This document shows positions 10,683 to 49,824 of a stretch of 64,000 nucleotides of DNA, piece by piece (within the stretch, counting starts at the first letter, position 1; every line of letters starts with the position of its first letter). The DNA lies in the NCBI GenBank assembly GCA_023230925.1, contig JALNWK010000001.1:34781-98780 (forward strand), read 5' to 3'. The notes below the pieces were generated by a model. That model worked only from the letters and a program-made list of their open reading frames with translations, made no database searches and was not told the origin of the DNA. Made by a program: the position numbers and the translations under genes. Source of the DNA: Limnochordia bacterium (lineage in GTDB: Bacteria; Bacillota; Limnochordia; DUMW01).

Positions 10683-11366
10683 ATGGGTAAGGGTGAGATC
10701 AAGATGCTTGATGTTCGTAAGGAATTCCGAACGGGTTCAGAGGTATTAACCATATTGAAGGAAGTCAATATAGAGATTAAGAGCGGAGAAGTGGTTGCCA
10801 TCGTTGGTCCATCGGGAAGTGGTAAGAGTACTCTCCTAGGGATCATGGCCGGCCTTGATCAGCCAACCTCAGGAGAGGTCTGGCTCGGGGATACAAACAT
10901 AACGAAGCTTAGCGAGAGTAAGATGGCCAAAATTAGGGGTGAGCTTCTAGGTTTTGTATTCCAGAATTATAATCTAATTCCCAGACTGAGTGCCTATGAG
11001 AATATCGAACTTGCCTTGATTCTGAATAATAAGCTAAGAAACAGGGATGTCCGCATTAAGGAACTATTACAAGCGGTGGGCTTGGAGGAACGCAAGCAGC
11101 ATCTTCCCGGACAGATGTCAGGGGGAGAGCAACAACGGGCTGCTATAGCCCGTGCTTTGGCGTGTGATCCGCCCATCGTGTTGGCCGATGAACCCACTGG
11201 GAATCTTGACCGGAAGTCCAGCAAGCAGATCGCGGACTTGCTGTTTGATACATGCCGTGATGAAGGGCGGACTTTGGTACTGGTTACCCACGATTTGGAG
11301 TTAGCCCAAAGGGCTGACTATATACTGCGGATCGATGATGGGATTTTGGTGGAGGAGGTAGCTTGA
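10683..11366 (+). CDS. ABC transporter ATP-binding protein (MacB/LolD/FtsE-like).
   Basis: Walker A GPSGSGKST, signature MSGGEQQR, Walker B LADEPT. RBS AAGGAGG upstream. Confidence 0.85.
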   Translation: MGKGEIKMLDVRKEFRTGSEVLTILKEVNIEIKSGEVVAIVGPSGSGKSTLLGIMAGLDQPTSGEVWLGDTNITKLSESKMAKIRGELLGFVFQNYNLIPRLSAYENIELALILNNKLRNRDVRIKELLQAVGLEERKQHLPGQMSGGEQQRAAIARALACDPPIVLADEPTGNLDRKSSKQIADLLFDTCRDEGRTLVLVTHDLELAQRADYILRIDDGILVEEVA

Positions 11367-13870: not shown

Positions 13871-14044
13871 ATGAGCAGGTCCGAAGCCTGATCCCCTAGA
13901 TGTGGTCAGAACTAGGGCTTGCCGGGCTACGGAGGCTTTATCAGTGTCTCTCATGGCTGGGTTAGGCTGCATTCGGGTCATTGGGTCACTCTGTGGTACA
14001 GCACTACCCGGAAAGGAGCATATAGGTTGGAAAGATACGATACG

Positions 14045-15235
14045 ATGAACAATGCTTGTATCACTCAAAGGGTTCGATTGGGGGTTGACGTCTTCCTTAA
14101 TGCGGCGCATCGGAAATACAAGGGTGCCCGGTTGGGATTGATTACCAATCAGTGTGGGCAGACTTCATCTTTGATACCCACCGTGGAGGCACTGTACCAC
14201 CATAAAGAAGTAAACCTTGTTGCCTTATTTGGCCCCGAACACGGGGTGCGAGGCGATGCACAGGCGGGTATCAGGTTAGCTAATGGAGTGGACCCCGTAA
14301 CTGGGTTGCCCGTATACAGTCTGTACGGTGATACGAGAAAGCCATCGGCCAAGGCCCTAGAGGGTATTGACGCGTTGGTATTTGATATTCCCGATGGCGG
14401 TGTGCGTTTTCTCACGTACTCATCTACCCTTTCGTATGTGATGGAAGCTGCGGCAGAGCATGGTATCAAAGTCATTGTATGTGACCGTCCCAATCCTATT
14501 CGAGGGGACCGTGTGGAAGGTAATGTGCTCGACCCGACCTTCCGCTCCTTCGTGGGTTGCCATCCCATTGCAATGCGCCATGGAATGACAATGGGGGAGC
14601 TAGCCTGGCTAATGAATGAGCACTTTGGTATTGGATGCCGACTGGAAGTTATTCGAATGGAGGGCTGGCGGCGTGAGCACTGGTATGACGAGACCGGTGC
14701 TTTCTGGGTGATGCTGGGGCCGAACATCCCAACACTAATGGCCGCCACAGTGTATCCGGGAACCTGTCTAGTCGAAGGGACCAACGTTTCTGAGGGCCGG
14801 GGGACTACCTGTCCTTTTGAGTTAATCGGTGCTCCTTGGATTGACGCAGGTAGATTGTGTGCGGCACTTCGCGAGCTTAGTCTACCGGGATTAGCCCTCC
14901 GCCAGGCTCATTTTACGCCTACCTTTTCGAAATATAAGGGCGAAGGGTGCCATGGGGTGCAGATATACGTGACTGACCGGGATGTCTTTCGGCCTATAGG
15001 GTTTGCGCTTCACCTGATCTCGACCATAAAACGGTTATTTCCACAGGACTTTCAGTGGCGCGGAAAGACAGAGCCCCTGCACTTTGACTTGCTCTGGGGA
15101 ACTGATATAGTCAGACATAGACTGGATGATGGTGAGAGTGTAGACTCAATACTCAGTTCCTTTCAGCCCGGGATCGACCGGTTTCTTGCCGTGCGCGAGA
15201 ATTATCTTCTTTATCCGGCTCTGGAGAATGATTAG
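14045..15235 (+). CDS. namZ: Exo-beta-N-acetylmuramidase NamZ (DUF1343).
   Basis: RLGLITNQ...LFGPEHG motifs of the DUF1343/YbbC family, sitting beside murQ. Start taken at ATG 14045; an alternative TTG at about 14027 has a better-placed AAGGAG. Confidence 0.7.
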   Translation: MNNACITQRVRLGVDVFLNAAHRKYKGARLGLITNQCGQTSSLIPTVEALYHHKEVNLVALFGPEHGVRGDAQAGIRLANGVDPVTGLPVYSLYGDTRKPSAKALEGIDALVFDIPDGGVRFLTYSSTLSYVMEAAAEHGIKVIVCDRPNPIRGDRVEGNVLDPTFRSFVGCHPIAMRHGMTMGELAWLMNEHFGIGCRLEVIRMEGWRREHWYDETGAFWVMLGPNIPTLMAATVYPGTCLVEGTNVSEGRGTTCPFELIGAPWIDAGRLCAALRELSLPGLALRQAHFTPTFSKYKGEGCHGVQIYVTDRDVFRPIGFALHLISTIKRLFPQDFQWRGKTEPLHFDLLWGTDIVRHRLDDGESVDSILSSFQPGIDRFLAVRENYLLYPALEND

Positions 15236-15398
15236 TGGGCGCACGCGATCAGGAGTGGGTAATGCACGATGGTGGCAAGGTCTATTATAAGAGCGTGCGC
15301 CACCATTATCATTACACATAGAGTGAGGTCTAGCGGACCATGCAATCCTCACATTACGGTGTTGTCCGATGGTGGTAGTTGAGAAGAAGGGGTCTAAT

Positions 15399-16376
15399 AT
15401 GGATACTGTTCTTGCTGTAGACGGTGGGGGAACTAGTACACGTTGTGTTTTGGTAAACGATCAATTCGGATTACTAGCGGATGAAACTGGTCCGTTTTGT
15501 GCTCTAGTGTATGATCAAAAGCGCTCCCTTGCGGGGTTGCACACTACAATCCATCGGGCAATGGAGAGTGCTAAGGCGAAGTGGCGCAGCAAGTGCGGTG
15601 AACCGATGCATATCACTGCAGCGTGTTTAGGATTGAGCGGTGTTATGTCAATAAGTAGTACGGAACCTGTGCGCCACTGTGTTGTATCCTGCCTTGCGAA
15701 GGAAGGTTACCGTTTATCTACTCAACGTTTACAGATTGTATCTGATGTGGAGATTGCGCACGTGGCCGCACTACGGGGTGAGTCAGGGATTGTTCTTGTG
15801 GTGGGCACCGGTGCTATCGCGTATGGATGCAATGAAGCAGGGGATACAGCGCGCTCAGATGGATGGGGCTGGCTGTTGGGGGATGCCGGAAGTGGTTATG
15901 CTATTGGCAGGGATGCATTACGGGCTGTTTGCGCGGCGGCGGATGGACGTGGTGCATCAACAAGGCTAACCCAAGCCCTCCTTTCCCATTTTGATGTCTC
16001 TGACATCAAATCCTTGGTACGGACTGTTTACGATAGTAATCTGAATCGAACCAGTGTCGCGGAGTTGGCTAGGATCGTTTCCATTCTTGCATCGGAAGGG
16101 GACCAAGTCGCCGATAGTATCCTGAACCGGGCGGGTAAAGATCTGTCCGATACTGTGTTGGGGGTCTTACGCCAGCTATCATTTGCTGGAGAACGTGTTA
16201 AAGTAAGTTGGCAAGGCGGCGTCCTGAAGGGGACGCCGAGATTAGTTGCCTCGGTGCGGGAACATGTTGTATCCACCGAATCAGGCTGTGTTTTTGTTCC
16301 TCCGTGGGCGGAACCCGTCCAGGGGGCTTTGCTGCTAGCGCAGCGTAGCTTGAAAGAACCGTTTACAACCGTCTGA
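15399..16376 (+). CDS. BadF/BadG/BcrA/BcrD-type ATPase, likely an N-acetylmuramic acid / N-acetylglucosamine kinase (MurK-like).
   Basis: Sugar-kinase phosphate-1 motif MDTVLAVDGGGTSTR, and DAGSGY. It lies between namZ and murQ. Confidence 0.7.
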   Translation: MDTVLAVDGGGTSTRCVLVNDQFGLLADETGPFCALVYDQKRSLAGLHTTIHRAMESAKAKWRSKCGEPMHITAACLGLSGVMSISSTEPVRHCVVSCLAKEGYRLSTQRLQIVSDVEIAHVAALRGESGIVLVVGTGAIAYGCNEAGDTARSDGWGWLLGDAGSGYAIGRDALRAVCAAADGRGASTRLTQALLSHFDVSDIKSLVRTVYDSNLNRTSVAELARIVSILASEGDQVADSILNRAGKDLSDTVLGVLRQLSFAGERVKVSWQGGVLKGTPRLVASVREHVVSTESGCVFVPPWAEPVQGALLLAQRSLKEPFTTV

Positions 16377-16396
16377 AAGGGAAGTGTCTGAAACAA

Positions 16397-17269
16397 ATGA
16401 GACCGTCTGAAATGCGCAATCCAAAATCCTTCGAACTAGATCTGATGTCAACAGAACAGGTTTTGAGTTTGATCAATGAAGAAGACCAGACAGTGCCTTT
16501 ACTTGTGCGACAAGCGATACCAGAAATCGCACAAGGGGTGGAGTTGCTGGCGTCTAGTTTCAAAACCGGTGGCCGGATTGTCCATGTAGGGGCAGGAACT
16601 AGTGCGCGTCTTGCGTTAGTCGACGCCGCAGAGTTGCCACCAACGTATGGAATATCTCCGGAAAGACTGGTAAATGTTATTGCGGGTGGACGAGAGGCAG
16701 TTTTCCAAGCAGTTGAGCATGCGGAGGATCGCGGTTCGGAAGCTGTTAGGCAACTGACTCAAATCAGTCTGTGTCATTCTGATGTAGTTATCGGTCTGAC
16801 TGCAAGTGGAACTACGCCGTTTGTCTTTGCGGGACTTGACTATGCAAGAACAGTCGGTTGTCCCACTTTGCTGATCGCTTGCAATCCCAGTCTGATTGAG
16901 GCCGACGTGAAGATCATTGTGCCCACAGGGCCGGAAGTTGTGACTGGATCTACCCGGATGAAGGCAGGGATGGCCCAACGAATGGTCTTGACGATGTTAA
17001 GCACGGCCATGGCAGTGCGTCTTGGTCTAGTATACGATAACCTCATGGTGGCACTTGGTTCACAAAATGCCAAGTGTCTGGAAAGAGGTTGCCGTATTGT
17101 GTGCACCATCTCCGGGGAAAACGAAGAGATTTCCAAGGAAGCTCTGCGGGCAGCCGATGGTGATGTTCGGGTGGCTGTTCTTCTCCTACGTACCGGCGAT
17201 CTGAGCAAGGCCCGTGCACTACTTGAAGAGGCCGAGGGTTCTCTTAGAAAGGCCTTGGAGAGAATATAG
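16397..17269 (+). CDS. murQ: N-acetylmuramic acid 6-phosphate etherase.
   Basis: SIS-domain protein with HVGAGTSARLA and the GxTxMK-like motif typical of MurQ. Confidence 0.85.
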   Translation: MRPSEMRNPKSFELDLMSTEQVLSLINEEDQTVPLLVRQAIPEIAQGVELLASSFKTGGRIVHVGAGTSARLALVDAAELPPTYGISPERLVNVIAGGREAVFQAVEHAEDRGSEAVRQLTQISLCHSDVVIGLTASGTTPFVFAGLDYARTVGCPTLLIACNPSLIEADVKIIVPTGPEVVTGSTRMKAGMAQRMVLTMLSTAMAVRLGLVYDNLMVALGSQNAKCLERGCRIVCTISGENEEISKEALRAADGDVRVAVLLLRTGDLSKARALLEEAEGSLRKALERI

Positions 17270-20607: not shown

Positions 20608-23600
20608 ATGGGGTTTGAAGTTAAGGATTTCGCTGTTCCACCTAAGGACTTCCGACCAGTACCCTTTTGGTCGTGGAATGATGAATTAACCGAAGAAGAG
20701 CTGATTAGGCAGATTGCTTTGATGGATGAGCAAGGGTGGGGTGGTTTCTTCATGCATTCCCGCATTGGGATTCGTACCCCCTATCTCACAGACGAATGGA
20801 TGCATTTAGTCAAGGTATGTGTTGAAGAAGCAAAGAACCGAGGTATGGGCGCTTGGTTATATGATGAGGATCGCTGGCCTAGTGGTTTTGCCGGGGGTGC
20901 AGTACCGGCACTAGGTAAGCGTTATCGAATGAAGAATCTGGTTTTGGCTATAGATGAGATCACTGATCCAGAGGATCTAGTAGAGATTTATCAGGTATAC
21001 AGCTGTACCATGAAAAACGGTAAACCTCGTGCCATTCAAAAGATCCACCTGGAAGAGACCGCAGAAGCCAAGGAAGAGGGGCGTACAGTCCTTTATATTT
21101 ATCAGCGGACCTGCCCCATTGGCCATCGATGGTTCAACGGGTATTGCTATCCGGACTTACTGGATCCAGTGGTTACCGATGCCTTTTTGGAGTCTACATA
21201 TGAATTATACAAGGATTACCTAGAGGCAGACTTTGGCAAAACGATTCCCGGCGTGTTTACCGACGAACCAGCTTGTCACTATCGTTCCCACGCACCACTG
21301 CTTAGTTATCAGTGGACGCCGTCATTTCCACAATGGTTCAAGGAGAAGTACGGCTATGAGATCAAGGAACATTTTCTCTCACTGTTTTTTGACCTAGGCG
21401 AATATGAAAAAGTCCGCTACGATTTTTGGAAACTGCTTGCCGAATGTTTTGTGGAGAACTTCTCAAAAAGGGTCTACCAGTGGTGTGAGGATCATCAGCT
21501 AAAATTGACAGGCCATTACATGTGTGAAGACAACTTCGTCAGCCAGATGCAATGGATCTGTAGTGCGATGCCCCATTATGAGTACATGCACATTCCTGGG
21601 ATTGACCATTTGGCCAGAAATATTAACGATGATATTACTGCGAAGCAGTGCAGCAGCGTGGCTAATCAGCTGGGCCGGCAACGGGTGCTATCTGAAATGT
21701 TTGGGGTTAGCGGGCAGAACATGTCCTTTGAGGATATGAAATGGATTGCCGATTGGCATTTTGTCCATGGAATTAACCTGGTAAACCCCCATTTGTCTCT
21801 TTACAGTACCAGGGGCTGTCGTAAACGGGATTACCCACCGAACATCTTCATCCAGCAGCCTTACTGGTCCGACATTAAGGGGTTATCGGACTATTTGTCC
21901 CGCACGGCTTATGTTCTATCATGTGGAAGCCGGGTTACCGATGTGTTAGTGCTACATCCGATTGAGACGGGTTGGGTGACCTTTACCCCTGACAAGCAGC
22001 GGGTTACGAAGGAATACAATAGGAAATTCACAGCTATCATCGAGGAACTACTGCGAAACCAGATTGATTATGATCTGGGGGATGAGTCGCTAATCGAAAA
22101 GTACGGCGAAGTGTCCAATGGGGAGTTTCACGTAGGTGAGCAGTCCTATGGTGTGGTGGTGGTACCGCCAATGATTACGCTACGTTCATCCACATTGAAA
22201 CTGTTGACCAGGTTTGTCCAAGCAGGTGGTGATGTTCTCTTTGTGGGAGAAGTGCCGACAATGATTGATGGACGGAAATCGGAATTGCTGGTGGACCAAG
22301 AGTATACTGCTATGGATGAATTGATTCCTGTGTTATGCAGGCACTTGGATCTACGGGTTCAGATTGAAGCTCCGGAAGAACTACGCCGGGCTGTTTGGTA
22401 CCATCAACGCCGCTTGGAAAACGGTGATGAAGTGTACTTTTTGGCAAACACAAGTAAGGAGTCCTCCGGCCATGCTACGGTGAAAATACCCTTGTGCAAC
22501 GCTGCAGGAAGGCACTTGTTTCGGTTGAATAGTGAGTCCGGGGAGCTATACCAGCTGGACCATCAGGTTCAGTCGGACCAGATTAGGGTTAGTTGGCATT
22601 TTGCCCAAGCAGGCTCGTTACTCATACTATTGACGGACAAACCTGAGCGCTATGGCTTTGTCTCTCAGACGGCCATGCCAGACTTCTCTCCGGGTAAAGT
22701 AAAAAGACTGCCTGTAGATTGGAAGTTTGAGCGTCTTGACCCCAATGCACTATGCCTTGATATGTGTCAATACAAAGTCGCTGAAGGTGCTTGGAGTGAG
22801 CCCATGTTTGTTTTGTTTGCCCTTGAGGAATTGTACAAACTGGGGAAAAGGCAACAGGAGTTTAGATTTGCCATTCGTCAAGTTTTCCATGTGAAGCACC
22901 TTCCCTCTCATGTGGCTTTAGCCATGGAGATGCCTGTTGACTATAAGGTTTATCTTAATGGACGAAGGATCCTCTCCAATGATGACGGTTACTGGTTAGA
23001 TCCTACCTTGCGAAAGAAAGACATCACGCCTCTAGTGACCACAGGTGAGAATGTGCTCGAGTATTATGGGACCTACAGGGATCTCGAAGGGCTAAATGAA
23101 TTGTACTTCGGTGGGCATTCCGGTTTCATTGATAAGCCCATAAATCCCGCACAGCCATCCAAACTCCGTTCCACGGAGATAGATGCAACCTTTGTCATTG
23201 GTGATTTTGCCCTGGAGGAAAAGGATGGACGGTTTGTGATTGTTCAGGAACCGCGAACGCTGAACACCATGGATTTTACAAGCCAAGGTTATCCTTTCTA
23301 TGCTGGCAAGATGGTGTTAAGCACTATTGTGGAACTTTCGGAATGTCCTAATGCTGCACGACTTGTGTTCGATCAACTCTGTGCAACTGTGGCTGAGGTC
23401 TTGGTTAACGGACAGAATGTAGGGAAGATACTATGGCGTCCTTATATGGTCGATCTTGATCAGGTATTACGGCAAGGTCACAACAGAATTGAAGTTGTTC
23501 TTACAAACAATCTGCGCAATCTATTCGGTCCTCATCATCATACCGGAGTAGAACTAAAAGTGGTTGGTCCTGGTACCTTTGTTGATAAAGAATACTGGAC

Positions 23601-23658
23601 CGATGAGTATAAGCTTACGCCAGTGGGGCTTGGACAGGTTTGTTTAGAGCTAGAATGA
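20608..23658 (+). CDS. Large glycoside-hydrolase-like protein. The family cannot be assigned by eye; a GH106-like rhamnosidase is a tentative guess.
   Basis: 1016 aa. The N-terminal RPVPFWSWNDELTEEEL motif and overall size resemble large exo-glycosidases. I did not recognise a catalytic signature. Confidence 0.55.
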   Translation: MGFEVKDFAVPPKDFRPVPFWSWNDELTEEELIRQIALMDEQGWGGFFMHSRIGIRTPYLTDEWMHLVKVCVEEAKNRGMGAWLYDEDRWPSGFAGGAVPALGKRYRMKNLVLAIDEITDPEDLVEIYQVYSCTMKNGKPRAIQKIHLEETAEAKEEGRTVLYIYQRTCPIGHRWFNGYCYPDLLDPVVTDAFLESTYELYKDYLEADFGKTIPGVFTDEPACHYRSHAPLLSYQWTPSFPQWFKEKYGYEIKEHFLSLFFDLGEYEKVRYDFWKLLAECFVENFSKRVYQWCEDHQLKLTGHYMCEDNFVSQMQWICSAMPHYEYMHIPGIDHLARNINDDITAKQCSSVANQLGRQRVLSEMFGVSGQNMSFEDMKWIADWHFVHGINLVNPHLSLYSTRGCRKRDYPPNIFIQQPYWSDIKGLSDYLSRTAYVLSCGSRVTDVLVLHPIETGWVTFTPDKQRVTKEYNRKFTAIIEELLRNQIDYDLGDESLIEKYGEVSNGEFHVGEQSYGVVVVPPMITLRSSTLKLLTRFVQAGGDVLFVGEVPTMIDGRKSELLVDQEYTAMDELIPVLCRHLDLRVQIEAPEELRRAVWYHQRRLENGDEVYFLANTSKESSGHATVKIPLCNAAGRHLFRLNSESGELYQLDHQVQSDQIRVSWHFAQAGSLLILLTDKPERYGFVSQTAMPDFSPGKVKRLPVDWKFERLDPNALCLDMCQYKVAEGAWSEPMFVLFALEELYKLGKRQQEFRFAIRQVFHVKHLPSHVALAMEMPVDYKVYLNGRRILSNDDGYWLDPTLRKKDITPLVTTGENVLEYYGTYRDLEGLNELYFGGHSGFIDKPINPAQPSKLRSTEIDATFVIGDFALEEKDGRFVIVQEPRTLNTMDFTSQGYPFYAGKMVLSTIVELSECPNAARLVFDQLCATVAEVLVNGQNVGKILWRPYMVDLDQVLRQGHNRIEVVLTNNLRNLFGPHHHTGVELKVVGPGTFVDKEYWTDEYKLTPVGLGQVCLELE

Positions 23659-23662: not shown

Positions 23663-24244
23663 TTGATGTTGAGTCTAGGAGGGATAGATGTGTTTGGGGA
23701 TACCCCGGGAGTAGCGAATACAAGAGCTACTTTGTCCGTCGCCTATGAAGAAGCCAATGAGCGTGGAATAGAGCATCTTGTTGTAGCTTCTAATGAAGGC
23801 AATACCATACTTCAGTTGGTATCTGAGTTTGATACCGCGCATCTAACGATTGTGGGAGTAACGCATCAGGTGGGTTTCCGCGAGCCTGGATTGGACGAGA
23901 TGCCAAAGGAGATACGACAGCAACTAGGAGACAAGGGTGTTAAGCTCCTGACAACAACCCATCTGCTTGCTGGCATAGATCGAAGCCTAAGGCATGGTTT
24001 CGGTGGCATTTATCCCCCAGAGATTATCGCAAATACTCTGCGGATGTTTGGGCAGGGTGTGAAGGTATGTGTGGAGATTAGTATGATGGCCCTTGATGCT
24101 GGTCTTATTCCCTACGGTGAAGACGTAATCGCTATTGCAGGCAAGAGTAGGGGAGCGGATACAGCCTGTATTATTCGACCTGGCCATTCAACTGCTGTCT
24201 TTGAGACGAGGATTATGGAAATTTTATGTAGACCTCGACCATGA
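23663..24244 (+). CDS. Pyruvate-kinase alpha/beta-domain-like protein of uncharacterised family.
   Basis: 193 aa with HLVVASNEGNT...VGVTHQVGF...LLTTTHLLAG...GQGVKVCVEISMMALDAG. This pattern is typical of the small stand-alone PK_C-like proteins. Confidence 0.6.
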   Translation: MMLSLGGIDVFGDTPGVANTRATLSVAYEEANERGIEHLVVASNEGNTILQLVSEFDTAHLTIVGVTHQVGFREPGLDEMPKEIRQQLGDKGVKLLTTTHLLAGIDRSLRHGFGGIYPPEIIANTLRMFGQGVKVCVEISMMALDAGLIPYGEDVIAIAGKSRGADTACIIRPGHSTAVFETRIMEILCRPRP

Positions 24245-24640
24245 TTGACGTGGCTTTTAGGAGATTTCAGAGGGCAAACAGAGTCTGACGGGGGAAATGG
24301 ATCCAGAATCCCTTTCCACAAAGGATTCATAATCTATGTGGGGCGCAATAGGTTTGTTGGATGAACGCTGTATATCCTAAAACCTGCGATGCTCCTCTGA
24401 GGGGCAATGGAAAAACCTGTGGGCATTGCATTTTTTGAGGAAGAAGGAAGGATTTAATATGTGACACGACGAATAACACAAAGAAACCTATAAAGGATTA
24501 CGTGTCATACCGGATCGGTCAAGGTTTTCATGAGTGGTATTTCATTTTGATGCCACTTTCAATAGTGATTACTTAGGCCTCCTTATTTGCGCGGGCAATG
24601 AATCACTTTGCCAGATAAGAAAATGAAGAGGTGTAAAAGG

Positions 24641-26659
24641 ATGAGAAAGGTAGCTTATGTATTAACAACGTTGCTCATTACGATTGCCTGTTTGACTTCG
24701 ATAGGAGCGGCGTTCCAGGTTGGCTACGTCTTGGACCCAGAAACCAATAGACGTGTTCCATCTCCTTTGGGTTATGTGTACGAAAGGGAGATACGCGATG
24801 TCGGCCTTGACAATCCCCTGGACTTATTCATTGACCCGGACGACAATATATACGTCGTTGATACATGGAATAACAGGATTGTTAAACTAGATCCTGCGGG
24901 CAACATCCTCCACACCTATGGTGACAGAAGAGGTGAAGGCGCCCTAAACAGACCGGAGGGTGTCCACGTCGATTCGGAGAGCAACGTGTGGGTCGCTGAT
25001 ACACAAAACTCCCGAGTCGTGAGGTTTAATCCTGAAGGCGAAGTTACTTTAGTTCTGGAGCAGCCAAAGCACGAAATTCTTGGAGACGATTTCCAGTATC
25101 GTCCTACAAAGTTGACAGTGGATAACCGAGATCACGTCTACGTTATTAACAGTAATGACTATCGTGGTATCGTCGATCTTGACCTTCAAGGTAATTTCGT
25201 CGAGTTCTTTGCACATAACCCGGTTGGTTGGAGCCTAAGACGTCTTATGATCCGGTTGTTTGCTACCGAGGCTCAGAAAGAAAGATTTGCACGAGATCTG
25301 CCACCACCTCATTCCAACATCTTTTTGCGGGACGATGGATTCTTCTATACTACTACCATTTATGAAACCAGAAACCAGATTAAGCGTTTGAGTCCCGTGG
25401 GAGTAAACGTGCATCCTGAAGGATTCTACGGGGAAAGGATCCGGCAGGGATGGCAATGGGTTATGCCCCGCTTTATTGATTTAACTGTAAACCAGTATGG
25501 AGTCATATCTGCACTAGATTCCTCATCGAGTAAAGTCTATCAATATGACCAGGAAGGTAACCTGCTCCTCGTTTTTGGTGGTAAGGGTGAGGGGAAAGGT
25601 TATGTGAGCCACGCAGCAAGCATTGATGTTGATTCAAATGGACTTCTATATATTCTTGATAAGGACCGCGCTCGCATTCAAATCTTCAGGCCTACTGAGT
25701 TTGCGAACCTTGTTCATGCTGCCACTCAGTTGTATATGGATGGTCGTTATGATGAGGCCGCTGTTCCATGGAGTCAAGTTATCGAGCTTAATAGTAACTA
25801 CACTATGGGCTATGTTGGTATGGGTAAGGTTTACCATCGAAAAGAAGATTACGATATGGCTATGAAGTACTATGAACTTGGAAATGATAAAGCTGGCTAT
25901 AGTAAGTCTTTCTCGGAAAAAAGGCTCATCACCTTACGGCAGAATTTTGGAACGCTGATTCTTAGTGTAATCGGAATCATCGTTCTCATCGTGGTTATTG
26001 TTAAGCTGATACGGCGGGTCCTTGAGAAGCCTGATGAAGAGACCGGGCCGTTTGGTCGAGCCGTTAAGCTGATTTACCTCTGCCTGTTCCATCCAGGTGA
26101 AGGCTTCCTGAGAGCCAAAGAGGAGGTCAGCCTACTATCAAGTTTTATTCTCCTATTCCTGTTCTTAGCAGCAAGGTTTATTACCCTGAAGTTTACTCAC
26201 TTTCCGCTCCAATCAGTGGATCCTGCTAAGGTACATGAGCTTGTAGAAGTGGGTAGAATGCTCCTTCCCTTTGGATTATGGGTCTTTGCCAATTGGAGCG
26301 TAACTGCCATTGCCGGTAGTGAAGCCAATCTGCGGGACATATTCGTTGGTTCATCAATCTGCGTTGTCCCTTATATTATTGTGGTGCCACTTCTGACTCT
26401 TTTCAGCCACGTTTGCTGTGCTCATGAAGCAGGGCTTTACGCTAGCATCCTTTCGATAATGAACTTTGCACAGATCTTCATGTTCCTATCTATGGTAAGG
26501 GTAATGCATAACTATAACTGGAAACGGACCATCGGGATCTCGATCCTGTCTATAATTTGCATGGCATTTTTTGTAGGCGGTGCAGCCTTGGTTTATGGAC
26601 TAATCAACCAGATGGTGGATTTCGTTAAGGAGGTCATCATTGAGATCTCGATCAGATAA
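24641..26659 (+). CDS. Membrane protein carrying an NHL-repeat beta-propeller, TPR repeats and a C-terminal multi-TM Yip1-like domain.
   Basis: Signal/anchor MRKVAYVLTTLLITIACL. Repeated NHL blades (DxxDNIYVVDTWNNRIVKLD, VADTQNSRVVRF, and others). TPR-like YMDGRYDEA...MAMKYYELG. About six predicted TM helices follow between residues roughly 440 and 680. Start moved to ATG 24641. Confidence 0.65.
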   Translation: MRKVAYVLTTLLITIACLTSIGAAFQVGYVLDPETNRRVPSPLGYVYEREIRDVGLDNPLDLFIDPDDNIYVVDTWNNRIVKLDPAGNILHTYGDRRGEGALNRPEGVHVDSESNVWVADTQNSRVVRFNPEGEVTLVLEQPKHEILGDDFQYRPTKLTVDNRDHVYVINSNDYRGIVDLDLQGNFVEFFAHNPVGWSLRRLMIRLFATEAQKERFARDLPPPHSNIFLRDDGFFYTTTIYETRNQIKRLSPVGVNVHPEGFYGERIRQGWQWVMPRFIDLTVNQYGVISALDSSSSKVYQYDQEGNLLLVFGGKGEGKGYVSHAASIDVDSNGLLYILDKDRARIQIFRPTEFANLVHAATQLYMDGRYDEAAVPWSQVIELNSNYTMGYVGMGKVYHRKEDYDMAMKYYELGNDKAGYSKSFSEKRLITLRQNFGTLILSVIGIIVLIVVIVKLIRRVLEKPDEETGPFGRAVKLIYLCLFHPGEGFLRAKEEVSLLSSFILLFLFLAARFITLKFTHFPLQSVDPAKVHELVEVGRMLLPFGLWVFANWSVTAIAGSEANLRDIFVGSSICVVPYIIVVPLLTLFSHVCCAHEAGLYASILSIMNFAQIFMFLSMVRVMHNYNWKRTIGISILSIICMAFFVGGAALVYGLINQMVDFVKEVIIEISIR

Positions 26660-26720
26660 ACAGATGTTCGCGAAGTCTAGGTTCTTTACCGAATTGTTCT
26701 GGTTGAAGGAGGTTAATAGC

Positions 26721-28880
26721 GTGAGGAAAGACAACCTGATTTTGATAGTGTTAACCTGTATGGTCATGATTGGCGTTATAAGCAGTGTTGCAGCTGCAGC
26801 GAGACCCGAGGCGATTCCGCCGGAATATGTCCGGGCAGCTTCTAGTAGGTATCTTGAGTTATATGTCGATATGGATACCGCTAAGTTCATTGTCTACGAT
26901 AGGCGAAACGATAAGGTCTGGCGTACGTCTCCCGAGCCTCACCCGGATATATCAGTAACTGATCTATGGGAAGGACATATTAACTCCAACTTTGTTCTGC
27001 ACTATGTAGACGAGAAGAAGCGGAACCCTCGTCAGACAAACCCGGTCAGCGAGAAAGCCATCATTGATTTTGAGCAGATTCCTAATGGTGTTCGGGTTAG
27101 TTACAATATGAAGGCTAAGTTAGGGATTGCCCTAGCCTTAGATTTCACTCTTGGCGATGATTACCTTGAAGTGACGTTTCCTCCGGAGACTCTTCAAGAA
27201 ACAGGTGAGTTCTACCTGGTAGCGCTGGAAGTTACTCCTTTCTTTGGAGCAGCATGGCCCGATGAGGAGGGTTATCTCTTTATTCCTGATGGTAGCGGAG
27301 CCATAGCTCACTTCCGGGAGGACTTTCCGGATTACTCCAGGGGATTCAACGAGGTAATCTATGGCGAAGATAAGTTTAAATTTCAAACACCCCTTGAGGC
27401 CCTGTTAACCCACCGGAGTCAGGTTGTTATGCCTGTATTTGGGTTAGCAAAAACTGATAAACAGGCGGCTTATCTTGGTGTTGTAACCAAGGGCGAATAC
27501 AACGCATCGATACTAGCAGGGCCAGCAGGATACACTGTCTCTTTGAATCGGATTGGTGCAAGTTTCGCGGTTAGGCGGCAGTACGAGGCTGCGATTCGTC
27601 TGGGGACCTATGTGCCAACGGTCGAGGAGCAAATCATTGATCGTCCCATGCAAGTTAGATACTATTTACTAGCTAATGATGACGCCAACTATGTTGGTAT
27701 GGCCACCGCTTATCGAGAGCACTTGATTGAAGAGCACAATATTCAACCAAGGGATGAGGTGCGCAAGCCGTCTCTGCAGCTTAGGATCTTTGGGGGTCTA
27801 AGCAGAACTGAGGTCCTGTTCAGGGAATTTATCGCTATGACTACCTTTGAACAGACGAAGACCATTGTCACCGCTTTGCAGGAGGCAGGCGTTGACAATA
27901 TTGATGTAGTGTTCTTGGGCTGGAACCTGTACGGATATAACGGTGCGTATCCGAAACGATTGCCCGTAGCAAAGGAACTTGGAGGAAGCGAAGGCTTAAC
28001 AGACCTGGCCAACTTCCTTTCTGAACGGGGATGCAGGCTATTTCTCGAGGACAACTATCTTGATGCCGATAGCGATAACGGGGGATTTAGCAACCGCAGA
28101 GACATTGTTCGGGAACCGAATAAGTTGCCGATGAACCTTGGGGGCCGGTACCTACTAAATCCAATCTATGCCTGGGATCGGTACGCCAAACCCGATCTAA
28201 CCACCCTTAGTACGCTGGGTGTGCATGGTATTCAGTTTAGATATCTTGGAAAAGTGATTCTTACCGATCGCAATTTCGATCATCCATTAACACGGCAAGA
28301 GTTCGTCAGCCAATGGCTCAAGTTGAGTGACTATGCCCGTGAAAAGATGGGCGCTGCAATTGCCGATGGCGGCAATATCTATGCGATTAATAACGTAGAC
28401 GCCTTTACAGACGTGCCGATATATCAAAGCACGTACGATTTTGTTGATAAATCGATTCCGTTTTATCAGATTGTGCTCCATGGCTTTGTACCATACAGTG
28501 CTTATCCAGGGAATTTGAGGAGCGATCCGGAACTAGAGTTTTTACGGATGCTTGAGTATGGTGCACTACCTTGCTTCGAGTTGACGTACCAAGAGCCTGG
28601 GTTGCTACAAGATACACCGTACAATCTGCTATTTAGCTCATACTACGAGCAGTGGCTTCCCAAAGTTGTCGAGGAGTACAATATTGTTGTCAAAGAGCTT
28701 GGTGAGATAGCAGGTCAGTATATCGTTGGCCATGAGTATGTACTACCAAATGTAGTGCGGGTGACCTATGAAAGCGGCACTTCGTTGTTGATTAACTACA
28801 ATGCCGATGCTGTGGAATGGCAGGGTATTATCGTGGATGGAATGGGCTATGCCATCGTCGAGGGGGGCAGCGAGCTATGA
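26721..28880 (+). CDS. Large N-terminally anchored extracellular protein of unknown function. It may correspond to a DUF5696-like family, but this is recalled from memory only.
   Basis: GTG start with GAAGGAGG 7 nt upstream. N-terminal TM helix LILIVLTCMVMIGVISSVAAAA. The remaining roughly 700 residues are soluble, with no catalytic motif I recognise. Its stop overlaps the next gene as ATGA. Confidence 0.55.
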   Translation: MRKDNLILIVLTCMVMIGVISSVAAAARPEAIPPEYVRAASSRYLELYVDMDTAKFIVYDRRNDKVWRTSPEPHPDISVTDLWEGHINSNFVLHYVDEKKRNPRQTNPVSEKAIIDFEQIPNGVRVSYNMKAKLGIALALDFTLGDDYLEVTFPPETLQETGEFYLVALEVTPFFGAAWPDEEGYLFIPDGSGAIAHFREDFPDYSRGFNEVIYGEDKFKFQTPLEALLTHRSQVVMPVFGLAKTDKQAAYLGVVTKGEYNASILAGPAGYTVSLNRIGASFAVRRQYEAAIRLGTYVPTVEEQIIDRPMQVRYYLLANDDANYVGMATAYREHLIEEHNIQPRDEVRKPSLQLRIFGGLSRTEVLFREFIAMTTFEQTKTIVTALQEAGVDNIDVVFLGWNLYGYNGAYPKRLPVAKELGGSEGLTDLANFLSERGCRLFLEDNYLDADSDNGGFSNRRDIVREPNKLPMNLGGRYLLNPIYAWDRYAKPDLTTLSTLGVHGIQFRYLGKVILTDRNFDHPLTRQEFVSQWLKLSDYAREKMGAAIADGGNIYAINNVDAFTDVPIYQSTYDFVDKSIPFYQIVLHGFVPYSAYPGNLRSDPELEFLRMLEYGALPCFELTYQEPGLLQDTPYNLLFSSYYEQWLPKVVEEYNIVVKELGEIAGQYIVGHEYVLPNVVRVTYESGTSLLINYNADAVEWQGIIVDGMGYAIVEGGSEL

Positions 28881-29884
28881 AGAAGGTGCTTAGGAAGATT
28901 GGGGAGTTCCTCGGTATGATTGTAACGGCGATTACGGAGTACTTTGAAGACGTAGTCGCTATAGGTACGGCGGGATTCAAGAAGGTGCCGGGGTTACGTA
29001 ATATTAGCCACTTGTCATTAAGTGCAAAACGTTGTCTAGTGGGCTATATCTTTATACTCCCATGGTTCTTTGGGTTTGTTCGTTATGTGGGATATCCCCT
29101 AATACGATCGTTCATTATTAGTTTCCAAACCGTAGAGAGCCTGTTAGGCTTTAAGATGAAGTGGGTCGGGTTGCAGAATTATGCCGAGGCCTTTTTCGTG
29201 GACGAACGGTTTGTCCCCATGCTATTGGAGGAGATTAGAGATACAGTCCTCGATGTGCCCGTGATTCTTGTGTTTTCGATTTTCGTATCGTACCTGGTAT
29301 GTAAGCCAATTCGTTTCGTGGGTGTTTTCCGGGCGATCTTCTTCTTGCCTGTCGTAGTTGCCTCAGGATTAGTCGTTAAGCAGCTATTTGACCAGGGCGT
29401 TGGTTCAACGATAGGAGTATCTGCCTTTATCGGAAACTTGGGTGTCGCGGATATGGTGTTTACCTACTTTGGAGCCAATGCGGCCACGTACTTCTTAGAC
29501 CTGTTAAACCGAATGACGTTGGTACTGTGGCGTTCTGGAGTCCAGATTCTTTTATTTATTGCGGGGTTCCAAAGCATTGGTTCTAGTTACTATGAGGCAG
29601 CTAGAGTTGACGGTGCCAATGAATGGGAAATGTTTTGGAAAATTAGCCTTCCCATGGTGTCACCGATTATTCTGGTTAACATCATCTATTCTATAGTGGA
29701 TTCCTTTACAGATGTCTTCAACCAGATGATTGACTTTATTAAGAACATCGCCTTTACCGGGCAGTTTCGATTGGGTCTGGCGGCAGCCTTTGGATGGGTT
29801 TATTTTGTGGTCATTTTCTTGCTTATCTTAATCGTACTTGCCAGCTCAAGGAAGTGGGTATTTTACGGTGGAGAACGGGATTAA
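28877..29884 (+). CDS. Carbohydrate ABC transporter permease, MalF/UgpA/LplB-like.
   Basis: EAA loop EAARVDGANEWEMFWKISLPM and six TM helices. ATG overlaps the upstream stop. Confidence 0.85.
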   Translation: MKKVLRKIGEFLGMIVTAITEYFEDVVAIGTAGFKKVPGLRNISHLSLSAKRCLVGYIFILPWFFGFVRYVGYPLIRSFIISFQTVESLLGFKMKWVGLQNYAEAFFVDERFVPMLLEEIRDTVLDVPVILVFSIFVSYLVCKPIRFVGVFRAIFFLPVVVASGLVVKQLFDQGVGSTIGVSAFIGNLGVADMVFTYFGANAATYFLDLLNRMTLVLWRSGVQILLFIAGFQSIGSSYYEAARVDGANEWEMFWKISLPMVSPIILVNIIYSIVDSFTDVFNQMIDFIKNIAFTGQFRLGLAAAFGWVYFVVIFLLILIVLASSRKWVFYGGERD

Positions 29885-29914
29885 GAGTTGGAGAAAGATT
29901 GGGAGGAGACAGGT

Positions 29915-30856
29915 ATGACAAGTATTGCGCAGGCGTTTGGCAGACTGCGGGAGCGTGCTGTCCCGGTTCTAACAGTATGGAGTCATCGGGGTCGGAAGGG
30001 CTTGTTTCAGCTTTTGATTTACATCATCCTGTTTGCGGTAGCGTTTACCTTCTTGCTGCCTATTGTGTATATGACTACGACGGGATTGATGACCATTGAG
30101 GATTACATTGACCCGGGTGTGCATTGGGTTCCGCGCAGCATTAATTGGGAGAACTTTGAGCTTGCTTGGCAAGGATTGCACTATCCAGATGCATTGAAAA
30201 ACAGTGCGATTATTGCGATCTTGGCAGCTGTGGGGCAGGTTATCTCGGCAGGTGTGACCGGATACGCCTTTGGTCGAATGAAGTTTCCTGGACGGGATAT
30301 TCTGTTTGTGTTTTTACTTTTTACCTTCATTGTTCCACCACAGACAATTATTGTTCCGTTGTTTATGTTGTTTAAGGAACTGGAATGGATCGACACCTAT
30401 AATCCATTTATTGTACCGGCATTTTTTGCTCAGGGGTTGCGGGGTTCGTTGTTTGTTCTTATTTTCCGGCAGTTCTTCATGAAGCTTCCCTATGAGCTTG
30501 AGGATGCAGCAAGAATTGATGGATGCGGAGAGTTTCGGACCTTTACCAGTATTATGCTGCCCTTGGCAAGACCGGCCATTTTGGTCACTTTCTTGTTCTC
30601 GTTGGTTTGGCACTGGAATGACTTCTATGAGCCAATGATGTACCTGATGAAGACACAGAAGTTCACGATGCCTTTGCGCTTGAGTATTCTGTGGACTTCG
30701 CTGAATGAATTAACAGGCGGGCAAGCCGGTGATATATACAACCAGCCTTTGATCATGGCTGCATGCTTCCTGGTTATCTTACCTCCACTGATTCTGTATA
30801 TGTTCACACAGCGCTACTTCGTTGAGGGTGTGGAGCGAACAGGACTAGTTGACTAG
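29915..30856 (+). CDS. Carbohydrate ABC transporter permease, MalG/UgpE/LplC-like.
   Basis: EAA loop EDAARIDGCGEFRTFTSIMLPLARPAI. RBS GGAGGAG upstream of ATG 29915. Confidence 0.85.
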   Translation: MTSIAQAFGRLRERAVPVLTVWSHRGRKGLFQLLIYIILFAVAFTFLLPIVYMTTTGLMTIEDYIDPGVHWVPRSINWENFELAWQGLHYPDALKNSAIIAILAAVGQVISAGVTGYAFGRMKFPGRDILFVFLLFTFIVPPQTIIVPLFMLFKELEWIDTYNPFIVPAFFAQGLRGSLFVLIFRQFFMKLPYELEDAARIDGCGEFRTFTSIMLPLARPAILVTFLFSLVWHWNDFYEPMMYLMKTQKFTMPLRLSILWTSLNELTGGQAGDIYNQPLIMAACFLVILPPLILYMFTQRYFVEGVERTGLVD

Positions 30857-30909
30857 TAGTAGAGAATTTGACATGTGGGAGCACAGCAATACGGGTGGGA
30901 GGAGTTCCG

Positions 30910-33066
30910 ATGAATAATCTTGCGAGAACAGGAAAACAGCCTGGAGACAAGAAGCGACTGACAGTCGCTGTTGCTGCAATTGCTGTAGTGGTTATTGTCG
31001 CTGTGGCATTGGTTTTCAGCGGTCGTCCTAAAAACGTCTATAAACTATCGCCTGAATCGGTTACCAAGGTAGCCGTGGCTGGGCGAGTGAATCTAGAACT
31101 GGAAAGAAAAGACCGAGGATGGTTATTGACCGAGCCTATTACCTGGCCGGCGGACGCCACGAGAATGGAGCAAATCATCAGTTTCGTGAGTGGACCGCGT
31201 GGTAGGAAGGCTGGCAGTGCGGGCAGTAACCTGGCCAAGTACGGTCTGGATAACCCGATCGTGAAGGTTGGGGTTGTTGCAGGCTCGGAAAGTCACGTTA
31301 TTCTTATAGGTGGGCGAGTTCCTCGAAAGGCTGCACATTACGTGAAGCTTGAGGAAAACAATAAGGTCTGGGAAGTCAGTGAAGGCGATTTGGGGTTTTT
31401 CACACAACCTGAGACTAGCTACCGTAGCCGTAACCTAGTGGATTTGGATTCCGAGTTAGTTTCCTTGCAGATCGTACGTGGTGAGGAGACTATTGTCCTA
31501 CGCCGGCGGGATGACGGGAAGTGGCAGGTCATCCGACCTATACAGGATGACGGTGACGAAGAGGCCGTCAAGGAGTTGCTCGAGTACCTTGGTTCAGTAC
31601 AGATTCGAGACTTTCTGGATGAACCGGGTGAGTTGAGTGAGTACGGACTTGAGGAGCCCGCGGCAAAAATTATCGCGATTACCGGCGACGGCGAGAAGAT
31701 AGAGGTTAGTATCGGAGATGTTGCCGGACTAGGAGTGCGATATGCCCGTAACGCCGCCTTTGATTCCGTTGTTACCGTTACCGGTGTTCGGTTCGCCCCG
31801 CTGCATATTCAGGCGGAGCAACTAATTGATCAATCTCTCTTAGATTTTGATGTATCCGACGTGGTAGGGCTGCGCATTAGAGATGTGGATAGTGACATAT
31901 CCTTTAGGAAGATCGACGGTGTATGGTATATACATCCCGATACGGATGCTCAGGCAATGGTATTCCATATTAACGCTTTACTTGGTGCTCTGCTAGATGT
32001 CAGAGTAGAGGCAGTGGTTAGCTCCGAGGTGGTTGTCGCCGATGATGAATTGGAGAGCTCTCGGTTTGATGTGGAGTTGGCCGATGGGCGGAAGCTATGG
32101 TTGCGGGTTTTGTTGCCGAAAGAAGGTGTTGGTGAGGGGTTTGTCCAGGTGGCGACCAGACCCCATTATTTCCGGATTTATGAGTTTGCGAGTATGCTCC
32201 TTGCCCGGCGAATCGCCAGTGTAAGCACCAGTATAATTGACCTTCCCATTGAGGATTGTATCGGTTTGCTGGTAATGACGCCTGAAGTAGTTGCTGCTGC
32301 GGGTAAGAAGACTCCAGAACCAGTGGAATTCAAATTTGATGAAGAAAATGCGGTGTGGAAGTCCGGTCGAGACGTCTTCTTTGGTGTTGAGGACTTTTCA
32401 GGAAGCTTAACGGAGATACTTGTGGACCGGGTGGCGCCCAAGCTAGAAAAGGAAGAGGACTACGGGTTCGCGGTGGAAAAGGGTGGCATATGGTATCAGG
32501 CTTCCACGGACAGGGATAGCGTCAAGATGGAGATCGGAGGCGCTACCGAAGAAGGGAAATATCGATATTTGCGTGTATCAGGACGTCCCGACGTATTCTT
32601 GGCTGAGAGCGACTCGATTACTCAGGTTATTGATACCTTTGGCCGGTTGAGGACGAACTTACTACAAATAAATGATGAGTTGCTGGTACGGTTGGAGATT
32701 TACAAGGGCGGTCAGGAGTATAGGGTGGAGAAGTCTGGTGGCAAGTGGTTAGATGTAGGTGCCAGTGATATAGATGCCCTTGTGAAGGCAATGAACCAGA
32801 TCGGTGTTCAGGCGGCTGCGGTTGATGCTGATCCTGAAACGTATAAATTCTATCCGGATCCTGTGGGTGTACGAGTGGTCTTCGTTTACGAAGATGGTTC
32901 CGAGGATAGCATGGATCTTGGTAATCGAATGATGCACGGTGTTGGGTGGTTTGCATCCTACCGTTACTTCCTGCGGGCCACAGGGGACACGGTGTACTAT
33001 GTTGCAGATGCTGTGGGTAAGAGTATCAATACAGCTGTGGACAATTTCATTAAGAAAATCCAGTAA
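30910..33066 (+). CDS. DUF4340-like protein: N-terminal membrane anchor plus repeated extracytoplasmic domains.
   Basis: 718 aa with TM helix LTVAVAAIAVVVIVAVALVF, then about four repeats of roughly 120 aa each (E....W.L..P..W.AD motif). Family name recalled from memory. Confidence 0.55.
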   Translation: MNNLARTGKQPGDKKRLTVAVAAIAVVVIVAVALVFSGRPKNVYKLSPESVTKVAVAGRVNLELERKDRGWLLTEPITWPADATRMEQIISFVSGPRGRKAGSAGSNLAKYGLDNPIVKVGVVAGSESHVILIGGRVPRKAAHYVKLEENNKVWEVSEGDLGFFTQPETSYRSRNLVDLDSELVSLQIVRGEETIVLRRRDDGKWQVIRPIQDDGDEEAVKELLEYLGSVQIRDFLDEPGELSEYGLEEPAAKIIAITGDGEKIEVSIGDVAGLGVRYARNAAFDSVVTVTGVRFAPLHIQAEQLIDQSLLDFDVSDVVGLRIRDVDSDISFRKIDGVWYIHPDTDAQAMVFHINALLGALLDVRVEAVVSSEVVVADDELESSRFDVELADGRKLWLRVLLPKEGVGEGFVQVATRPHYFRIYEFASMLLARRIASVSTSIIDLPIEDCIGLLVMTPEVVAAAGKKTPEPVEFKFDEENAVWKSGRDVFFGVEDFSGSLTEILVDRVAPKLEKEEDYGFAVEKGGIWYQASTDRDSVKMEIGGATEEGKYRYLRVSGRPDVFLAESDSITQVIDTFGRLRTNLLQINDELLVRLEIYKGGQEYRVEKSGGKWLDVGASDIDALVKAMNQIGVQAAAVDADPETYKFYPDPVGVRVVFVYEDGSEDSMDLGNRMMHGVGWFASYRYFLRATGDTVYYVADAVGKSINTAVDNFIKKIQ

Positions 33067-33071
33067 GCAGA

Positions 33072-33100
33072 CGAAGGGGGCGTACGCCCCCTTCGATTTG
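33072..33100 (+). terminator. Strong intrinsic terminator closing the 24.6-33.1 kb operon.
   Basis: Perfect GC-rich stem CGAAGGGGGCG / CGCCCCCTTCG around a tight loop, followed by ATTTGT. Confidence 0.7.
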
Positions 33101-33120
33101 TACTAGAGTACCGTTCTTTC

Positions 33121-33154
33121 AAGAACCTAGGGCCACGCGGAGGTTCTTTTTTTG
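33121..33154 (+). terminator. Second hairpin-plus-U-tract element in tandem with the previous terminator.
   Basis: AAGAACC-(14 nt)-GGTTCTT followed by TTTTTTG. Confidence 0.45.
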
Positions 33155-49735: not shown

Positions 49736-49824
49736 GATTCTTACACTCCTCCTCATTCTTAGTCTTGATTACCTACCCCAAATGATTAGATTTAGATAGC
49801 CTCCTCCTTCCATAGTACGAGCTG

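Follow-up and report, generated by a model that had tools for sequence, protein, structure and literature searches.

The window analysed here, a 64-kb stretch of a metagenome-assembled Limnochordia genome, carries at positions 24608-33066 five + strand genes that are numbered g1 to g5. They encode an NHL/TPR/Yip1 membrane protein (g1), a DUF5696 protein (g2), two permeases of the MalFG type (g3 and g4) and a DUF4340 protein (g5). It is fairly likely that g1-g4 represent, in a short form, a glycan-uptake cassette that is widespread but uncharacterised and that here draws its ATPase and binding protein from elsewhere in the genome. The order of the four genes is kept in relatives, the g2 product has the fold of glycoside hydrolase (GH) family 129, g2 and g3 are coupled at their junction, and the cassette stands in relatives among the genes of importers. 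The first-pass annotation of this stretch had taken the five genes as one block. Its domain calls, including its guesses of Yip1 and DUF5696, were all upheld by a Pfam profile scan, but the block itself does not hold as a unit, as g1-g4 are the core of a larger cassette family.

The four-gene core in related genomes

Gene neighbourhoods were compiled from precomputed gene calls, phmmer labels of open reading frames (ORFs) obtained with a handful of queries, and Pfam censuses of the nearest neighbours. The GTDB loci are the best 80 by similarity to the window's g2 and not a random sample of DUF5696; single loci are cited by our labels (L001 and so on). Every fetched locus whose flanks reach far enough shows the order g1-g2-g3-g4, and because it recurs wherever enough upstream DNA was fetched, the adjacency of these genes is no chance juxtaposition. 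Ahead of the core, 75 of the best 80 GTDB loci have a gene for a giant binding protein of ~1000 residues and a first permease pair. In the usual long form a gene for a MalK-type ATPase or an ordinary binding protein stands first, then come those of the giant binding protein and of two permeases, and after these the NHL/TPR/Yip1 gene, the DUF5696 gene and a second pair of permease genes. This order is typical in Paenibacillus, Bacillus sensu lato, Ruminococcaceae, Chloroflexota and Dictyoglomota. The matches listed come from Paenibacillus, Cohnella, many Bacillaceae, Ruminococcaceae, Chloroflexota and one metagenome-assembled genome of Dictyoglomota. The window's own lineage is sparsely sampled, and the best g2 match among the listed one-genome-per-species GTDB contigs is 35% identical. 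The giant binding protein (L004:3163-6135, with equivalents in about 75 loci, L010-L089) has its SBP_bac_1 domain at residues 596-883, and its N-terminal ~600 residues matched no Pfam family.

Upstream and downstream neighbours were counted in 62 loci. The gene just upstream encodes a conventional binding protein (SBP_bac_1) in 27, an ATPase of the ATP-binding cassette (ABC) type (ABC_tran) in 15, with OB_MalK too in 13, an AraC-type regulator in 5 and a response regulator in 3. With an iterated binding-protein hidden Markov model, a conventional binding protein was found within 2.5 kb in 47 of the 62 loci, besides the giant one; the giant protein is the only one in 14, and L027 has none. Downstream, the neighbours are glycoside hydrolases and phosphorylases (PF10091 in 14 loci, GH43, GH26, GH3, SOGP/GH94, GH106 and GH35), OmpR-type regulators and binding proteins. 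Such neighbours are those of CUT1 sugar importers and of polysaccharide utilisation loci, and not of exporters. A secretion module, one of the possibilities raised at first pass, found no support, and the context in relatives points to import. Since related cassettes normally hold binding proteins and often a MalK-type ATPase, their lack in the block is a lineage-specific reduction and no defining oddity.

The cassette and its flanks resemble the polysaccharide utilisation loci of Gram-positive bacteria in combining transporter parts with glycoside hydrolases or phosphorylases and with AraC-type or two-component regulators. They differ in the invariant pair of NHL/TPR/Yip1 and DUF5696 proteins, which has not been described for such loci, and the block in the window has no regulator gene within it. 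PF10091 (named 'Glycoamylase') lies just downstream in 14 of the 62 loci (L035, L036, L038, L039, L044, L049, L053, L055, L058 and others), and a GH94 gene like those of 1,2-beta-oligoglucan phosphorylases does so in L041 and L059. We take PF10091 to be the GH144-type beta-1,2-glucanase family. That PF10091 and SOGP/GH94 genes follow a subset of the cassettes hints at beta-1,2-glucan or sophoro-oligosaccharides as the substrate in Bacillaceae.

The junction between the DUF5696 gene and the next permease gene is also conserved. In 50 of 89 loci the two genes share 4 nt (NTGA), the stop codon of the former overlapping the start codon of the latter, and they lie between -20 and +14 nt of each other in 86 of the 89. 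A rough estimate of the chance rate, the product of the probabilities of a TGA stop, of a preceding base other than C and of the right frame, is below 10%, which marks the enrichment as real. The overlap speaks for co-translation of the two proteins in fixed stoichiometry but is no proof that they associate physically.

The short form and its constraint

The cassettes of the window and of L001, a metagenomic contig that is fully syntenic with it (78% identity), include no binding protein, giant or conventional, and no first permease pair. The next closest relatives are short forms as well, namely L092 (46% identity), with a GntR gene upstream, L093 (41% identity), with a divergent GH3 gene upstream, and L027, the sole short form among the best 80 GTDB loci, with a MacB-type system upstream. 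Just past the cassette of L092 there are two TolC-like OEP genes (L092:8337-10840), consistent with a diderm host.

Between the window and L001 the amino acid identities are 85% for g1, 78% for g2, 83% for g3 and 86% for g4, compared with 75% for purL and 77% for glpX. As the core genes are at 78-86% against 75% for purL, the core is under strong purifying selection even where no binding protein is encoded in cis. g5 is only 57% identical and evolves much faster.

The DUF5696 protein

The g2 product belongs to Pfam family DUF5696 (E=1.6e-168). Its AlphaFold (AF2) model has a pLDDT of 90.3 and a pTM of 0.89. A full-length Foldseek search with this model gave ZgGH129 as the top match (5opq; E=5.6e-36, TM-score on the target 0.74), and the top matches 5opq, 8rzk and 5wz* range from E=5.6e-36 to ~1e-31 with TM-scores on the target of 0.73-0.76. 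NagBb (5wzq) was matched at E=8.3e-33, and GH101, GH36 and GH31 rank next. A g2 profile run against the sequences of the PDB gave 5wzn at E=7.3e-12 and GH129 structures at ~1e-11; the C-terminal 267 residues gave only noise against the same sequences. ZgGH129 is built of a beta-sandwich, a TIM barrel and an Ig-like domain (PMC5698469), and the three-domain architecture of g2 agrees with it.

The same architecture is thus shared by g2, the alpha-N-acetylgalactosaminidase NagBb (5wzn) and the 3,6-anhydro-D-galactosidase DagB/ZgGH129 (5opq, 8rzk). However, g2 is only 15-17% identical to the GH129 structures and its Pfam family is DUF5696, with no GH family matched, which places it outside the sequence membership of CAZy GH129. 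Because of this low identity and the separate Pfam family, DUF5696 is treated here as a distinct sister family of GH129 and not as a member. It further differs from GH129 in its invariant PDGSG motif, in the membrane anchor of g2 and in that DUF5696 always occurs in a cassette with ABC permeases.

Conservation of residues was followed in 85 distinct homologues. Of the acidic residues, D217 in the PDGSG motif is kept in 100%, D244 in 95% and D543 in 94%, and position 639 (E639 in g2) is always acidic. In GH129 the nucleophile is D435 of NagBb and D486 of ZgGH129, and the acid/base is E478 of NagBb; the g2 alignments do not extend as far as the nucleophile. That to NagBb breaks off 8 residues short of D435, and that to 5opq and 8rzk stops at profile position 498, before the catalytic half of the barrel. 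The highly conserved D543 lies in the barrel region of g2, a few residues past the end of the NagBb alignment, and may be the counterpart of D435. A catalytic glycosidase activity of g2 would fit with its fold and with these residues.

An N-terminal hydrophobic segment is found in 78 of 84 g2 homologues and a lipobox in few. The DUF5696 family is therefore generally anchored or secreted. The first-pass annotation had allowed that g2 or g5 might be a divergent but ordinary lipoprotein sugar-binding protein; instead g2 has a GH129-like fold, and g5 has no homology to the binding protein of the cassettes. The family is large: when clustered at 50% identity it comprises 4789 representative clusters for E<=1e-3 and 2424 for E<=1e-30, and DUF5696 is present in at least 555 of the 600 stretches listed from one-genome-per-species GTDB contigs. 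Neither DUF5696 nor 8RZG is mentioned in the searchable literature, in keeping with the first-pass view that the arrangement has not been described.

The NHL/TPR/Yip1 protein

The g1 product combines NHL repeats (E=1.3e-18, 3 stretches) with TPR repeats that are weakly matched by Pfam. When its C-terminal 239 residues (445-683) were scanned alone, Yip1 (PF04893) scored 39.6 bits against a gathering cut-off of 28.6. Transmembrane (TM) segments, which like the other hydrophobic segments reported here come from a hydropathy scan, were placed at residues 18-36, 450-468, 507-525, 584-602, 612-630 and 644-662. In relatives the counterpart of g1 is either one fused chain or is split into an NHL/TPR protein and a Yip1 protein, and the split Yip1 orthologues carry the PF04893 annotation. 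The propeller is nearest to the PknD-sensor/Pizza and TRIM71 NHL domains (1rwi, E=2.1e-17). The Pizza proteins are designs derived from a PknD-like NHL domain. The likeness suggests that the g1 propeller may bind a ligand rather than catalyse a reaction.

What might a Yip1-family protein do beside an ABC transporter? YknW, a bacterial member of the family, modulates the assembly of the ABC transporter YknXYZ (PMC4887032). It is the only bacterial precedent found in the literature searched, and searches for Yip1 together with a binding protein, a glycoside hydrolase and an ABC transporter returned nothing relevant. Because YknW modulates the assembly of an ABC transporter, g1 is proposed by analogy to be an accessory subunit that might organise the complex or capture substrate. 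The YknWXYZ system of Bacillus resembles the cassette in that a Yip1-family membrane protein is encoded beside an ABC transporter. However, YknYZ is an exporter of the MacB/FtsX type with a membrane-fusion protein, whereas the partners of g1 are DUF5696 and importer permeases of the MalFG type, and the Yip1 domain of g1 bears an ectodomain of NHL propeller and TPR repeats. The MacB-type genes of the window lie ~11 kb upstream, and g1 has neither these nor a membrane-fusion protein as its neighbours. In L027 an ATPase, an HlyD, an FtsX/MacB and a second ATPase gene (L027:1298-7270) are directly followed by the NHL/TPR/Yip1 gene, which recalls the pairing of Yip1 with a MacB-type pump in YknWXYZ.

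The permeases and their transport partners

Both g3 and g4 have the BPD_transp_1 fold (PF00528), g4 with 67.2 bits (E=2e-18) and g3 with 27.3 bits against a cut-off of 26.4. More specific models scored under their cut-offs (UgpA-like for g3, 48 bits; GlcU and UgpE-like for g4, 105-110 bits). The EAA loops read from the translations, EAARVDGANEWEMFWKISLP in g3 and EDAARIDGCGEFRTFTSIMLP in g4, are canonical. In having two MalF/MalG-like permeases with EAA coupling loops the block resembles CUT1 importers such as MalFGK2-MalE and the Bacillota systems that share MsmX or MsmK, and in related cassettes the core is adjoined by binding proteins (SBP_bac_1) and by ATPases that carry a MalK OB domain. 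The block differs from them in that it encodes in cis neither a cognate binding protein nor a MalK/MsmX-type ATPase. It differs also in the gene for a GH129-like ectoenzyme that is joined at its junction to the first permease gene, in the NHL/TPR/Yip1 membrane protein as an invariant partner and, in the long forms, in the two permease pairs and the binding protein of ~1000 residues. A missing cis ATPase gene is common in Bacillota, as with MsmX in B. subtilis.

The 64-kb window has no other MalFG-type permease. Its ABC ATPases are two, one of an ABC-3 system and one of a MacB system, and neither an ABC-2 permease nor GldG is encoded in it. A hidden ATPase, ABC-2 permease or GldG was considered and rejected, as none was found in the 64 kb. 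The sole binding protein of the window is an orphan on the - strand, 15 kb from g3 and g4. It lies with GH76 and LacI-type regulator genes (46953-52322) and has no MalFG permease alongside. Compared with the ORFs of all the loci, it is most similar to the binding domains of giant binding proteins (51 giant against 13 small), although the similarity is weak (best E=2.1e-14).

Does the short form need a binding protein at all? Either one is supplied in trans or none is needed. If none is needed, g1-g4 would be an enzyme-coupled importer that is free of binding proteins, in which g2, the g1 propeller or both bind to the permeases and hand the substrate over to them directly, and the short form would be complete but for its ATPase. 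The first-pass annotation had likewise considered that the large proteins might replace a binding protein. A strongly constrained four-gene core without a cis binding protein in the window, L001, L092, L093 and L027 fits this idea, as do the 14 of 62 long-form loci with one binding protein for two permease pairs, the conservation across phyla of the stop-start overlap between the DUF5696 and permease genes, and the divergence of the g3-type permeases with their weak BPD_transp_1 scores. However, 47 of the 62 long-form loci show the ordinary stoichiometry of one binding protein per permease pair, with two of each, and in the window itself there is the orphan binding protein. To our knowledge, type I ABC importers require a binding protein to trigger ATPase activity. 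We regard this possibility as unlikely and prefer a binding protein supplied in trans.

The DUF4340 protein

The g5 product contains DUF4340 (PF14238; E=1e-45, 3 stretches in Pfam). Its context was examined in 80 metagenomic loci that an alignment based on g5 had retrieved (a three-sequence query; the g5 family model has 8 sequences). The order ABC ATPase, ABC-2 permease, GldG, DUF4340 is present in 72 of the 80, and 7 loci are cut by contig ends. The first-pass statement that DUF4340 normally accompanies ABC-2 or GldG-type exporters is borne out by these loci. Only one of the 80, L095, a relative at 57% identity, has two MalFG-type permeases followed by DUF4340. Of the five-gene order, the first four genes hold across Bacillota, Chloroflexota and Dictyoglomota and the fifth does not: MalFG-type permeases followed by DUF4340 occur only in the window, L001 and L095. 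DUF4340 was absent from the other DUF5696 cassettes fetched, the next closest short forms (39-46% identity) included. The literature searched holds isolated mentions of DUF4340 only.

With the 'auxiliary component' systems of the GldG/ABC-2 type g5 shares the DUF4340 repeats and the N-terminal anchor. Unlike them, it has no ABC-2 permease, no GldG (ABC_transp_aux) and no adjacent or cognate ATPase in the window, and it is preceded by importer-type permeases. That g5 might be a diverged replacement of the giant binding protein was also considered and rejected, as hhalign of a g5 family alignment against 81 giant binding proteins gave a probability of 0.1.

It could be argued that all five genes form one machine in this lineage, with the DUF4340 modules as a periplasmic part that handles or bridges substrate in place of the giant binding protein. 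g5 lies on the same strand after a gap of 53 nt, has its own Shine-Dalgarno sequence, and is followed but not preceded by terminators; L001 and L095 retain the order permease-permease-DUF4340 at 57% identity, and the lineage is diderm. This is quite unlikely, however, given that every other cassette lacks DUF4340, even the short forms closest to the window after L001, that the constraint on g5 is far lower (57% against 78-86% for g1-g4), that g5 has no homology to the giant binding protein and that the canonical partners of DUF4340 are an ABC-2 permease and GldG. We conclude that g5 is a lineage-specific recruit outside the conserved machine, and no role is assigned to it. It is probably co-transcribed with g1-g4, as the gap before it is short and no terminator is predicted there.

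Layout of the block and its surroundings

Gene starts were chosen by Shine-Dalgarno support (Table 1). For g1 the true start is probably an ATG with AGAGGTG 7 nt 5' of it, preferred over the TTG that opens its longest ORF. g2 starts at a GTG 61 nt past the g1 stop with AAGGAGG ahead, g3 at an ATG that overlaps the g2 stop (ATGA), g4 at an ATG after a gap of 30 nt, and g5 at an ATG. The junctions reported at first pass were correct to within 1 nt, and its picture of five co-directional, tightly packed genes closed by two terminators is borne out by the ORFs and by hairpin prediction. The two tandem hairpins resembling intrinsic terminators (33072..33154) stand directly after g5; none is predicted between the PK_C-like gene and g1.

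Table 1. Features of the block and of its surroundings in the window.
Feature	Position	Strand	Longest ORF	Description
GH106-like gene	20608..23658	+		Glycoside hydrolase, PF17132 (E=2.6e-19) and GH2-type jelly-roll domain
PK_C-like gene	23663..24244	+		Pyruvate kinase alpha/beta domain protein, 193 aa, PF02887 (E=1.1e-10)
Leader	24405..24640	+		Conserved 5' leader/promoter region before g1, long stretches identical to the L001 intergenic region
g1	24641..26659	+	24608-26659	Membrane protein: N-terminal hydrophobic segment, six-bladed NHL beta-propeller, TPR repeats, TM helix, Yip1 multi-TM domain
g2	26721..28880	+	26640-28880	N-terminal signal anchor and GH129-like ectodomain (beta-sandwich, (beta/alpha)8 barrel, beta-sandwich)
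g3	28877..29884	+	28817-29884	MalF/UgpA-like ABC importer permease, 6 TM helices, EAA loop
g4	29915..30856	+	29888-30856	MalG/UgpE-like ABC importer permease, 6 TM helices, EAA loop
g5	30910..33066	+	30868-33066	DUF4340 protein, N-terminal TM anchor, about five tandem alpha/beta modules
Hairpin 1	33072-33095	+		Terminator-like, 10 pairs, 8 GC
Hairpin 2	33129-33147	+		Terminator-like, then TTTTTTTG (T7 run) to 33154
LacI-type regulator	46953-47960	-		
Orphan binding protein	48050-49756	-		SBP_bac_1/SBP_bac_8, 568 aa
GH76	49825-50988	-		
369-aa protein	51213-52322	-		No family named

In the 364-nt gap ahead of g1, the ~230 nt at the 3' end match L001 about as well as coding sequence does. This leader is probably a promoter or operator, or else an uncharacterised leader. 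The idea that it contains a riboswitch or another RNA element was considered and rejected: an Rfam scan of the whole window, leader included, matched no family, and the leader folds no better than shuffled sequences (z=-0.9).

No hydrophobic segment was found in the GH106-like or the PK_C-like protein, and the former has no signal peptide. The GH106-like enzyme is cytoplasmic by this criterion and plausibly an intracellular partner of the uptake module. Its gene is syntenic in L001, and in L043 and L048 the long-form cassette is directly followed by a GH106-like gene, which makes plausible the first-pass suggestion that the upstream glycoside hydrolase belongs to the same locus. The PK_C-like gene is syntenic in L001 only, and the tie of its product to the module is uncertain. 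Two ORFs of the window, at 45460-46887 (-; 475 aa) and 52355-53155 (+; 266 aa), matched no Pfam family at E<=0.001.

Cultivated Limnochordia possess an outer membrane (PMC11456536). Because Limnochordia are diderm Bacillota, the ectodomains of g1, g2 and g5 should be periplasmic, and not extracellular as they had been described at first.

At 10683-17269 (+) the window has a MacB-type pair (a 227-aa ATPase and an 835-aa FtsX/MacB_PCD permease), followed by genes for a NamZ exo-muramidase, a protein of the BadF/BcrA-type ATPase family and a SIS-domain protein. The last three look like a set for peptidoglycan recycling.

This set, 7-10 kb upstream of the block, is of interest for another explanation, namely that the cassette handles the cell's own envelope glycan and not a nutrient. 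g2 and the g1 propeller would then act on a surface or periplasmic polysaccharide of the cell and the permeases would recycle its fragments. That every ectodomain is membrane-anchored and that DUF4340 usually stands beside GldG-type systems are in line with such a role. In relatives, however, the flanks look like those of nutrient uptake loci, with AraC-type or two-component regulators, extra binding proteins and enzymes of GH2/35/42/43/26/3/94, and no glycosyltransferase or polymerase was found beside the cassette in the sampled loci. A role in handling the cell's own glycan is very unlikely on balance.

A model for glycan uptake

The evidence is best accommodated by a model in which g1-g4 take up a glycan from the periplasm. 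The GH129-like protein g2, anchored in the inner membrane and facing the periplasm, would trim an oligo- or polysaccharide, and the MalFG-type pair g3/g4, to which g2 is translationally coupled, would import the trimmed product. A MalK/MsmX-type ATPase would power the permeases and a binding protein would feed them, both presumably encoded elsewhere in the genome. g1 would be a membrane-embedded accessory that captures substrate or organises the complex, and it may, like g2, associate physically with g3/g4. The cytoplasmic GH106-like enzyme encoded upstream may complete the degradation. g5 would be a periplasmic protein with a membrane anchor that only this Limnochordia lineage has recruited. 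Import is the direction of transport suggested by the type of the permeases and by the context in relatives.

Several points weigh against this model. The five-gene block encodes no binding protein, and no MalK-type ATPase is found in the 64 kb of the window. The alignment of g2 to GH129 structures stops ahead of the nucleophile, so that its activity is deduced, and D202 of ZgGH129 aligns near E237 and not with the invariant D217. The flanking glycoside hydrolases vary between lineages and a substrate cannot be named from them. The model also leaves g5 unexplained.

A bolder version of the model is that the core is an importer supercomplex of a new kind, in which the ecto-glycosidase and the Yip1 scaffold are integral parts, hydrolysis is channelled into transport and the short form works without a soluble binding protein. 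We consider this rather unlikely, and the simpler model of g1-g4 as the short form of an uptake cassette served in trans is preferred.

Concluding remarks

Another theme that emerges from this work is that the cassette adds two invariant partners, a GH129-like DUF5696 ectoprotein and an NHL/TPR/Yip1 protein, that are undescribed for utilisation loci. DUF5696 is a large family that is always found with the same partners among the matches listed, yet it is absent from the searchable literature. Its GH129-like fold and importer context lead to a testable hypothesis, that DUF5696 is likely a new glycoside hydrolase family, and to another on the role of bacterial Yip1 proteins that are fused to NHL propellers. 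The link to beta-1,2-glucan enzymes (PF10091, SOGP) in a subset of the cassettes provides a first candidate substrate. We know of no Sus-like outer-membrane systems, as found in Bacteroidota, in Bacillota. If the enzyme and the scaffold do prove to be subunits of the importer, the cassette would represent a new coupling of depolymerisation to uptake in Bacillota.

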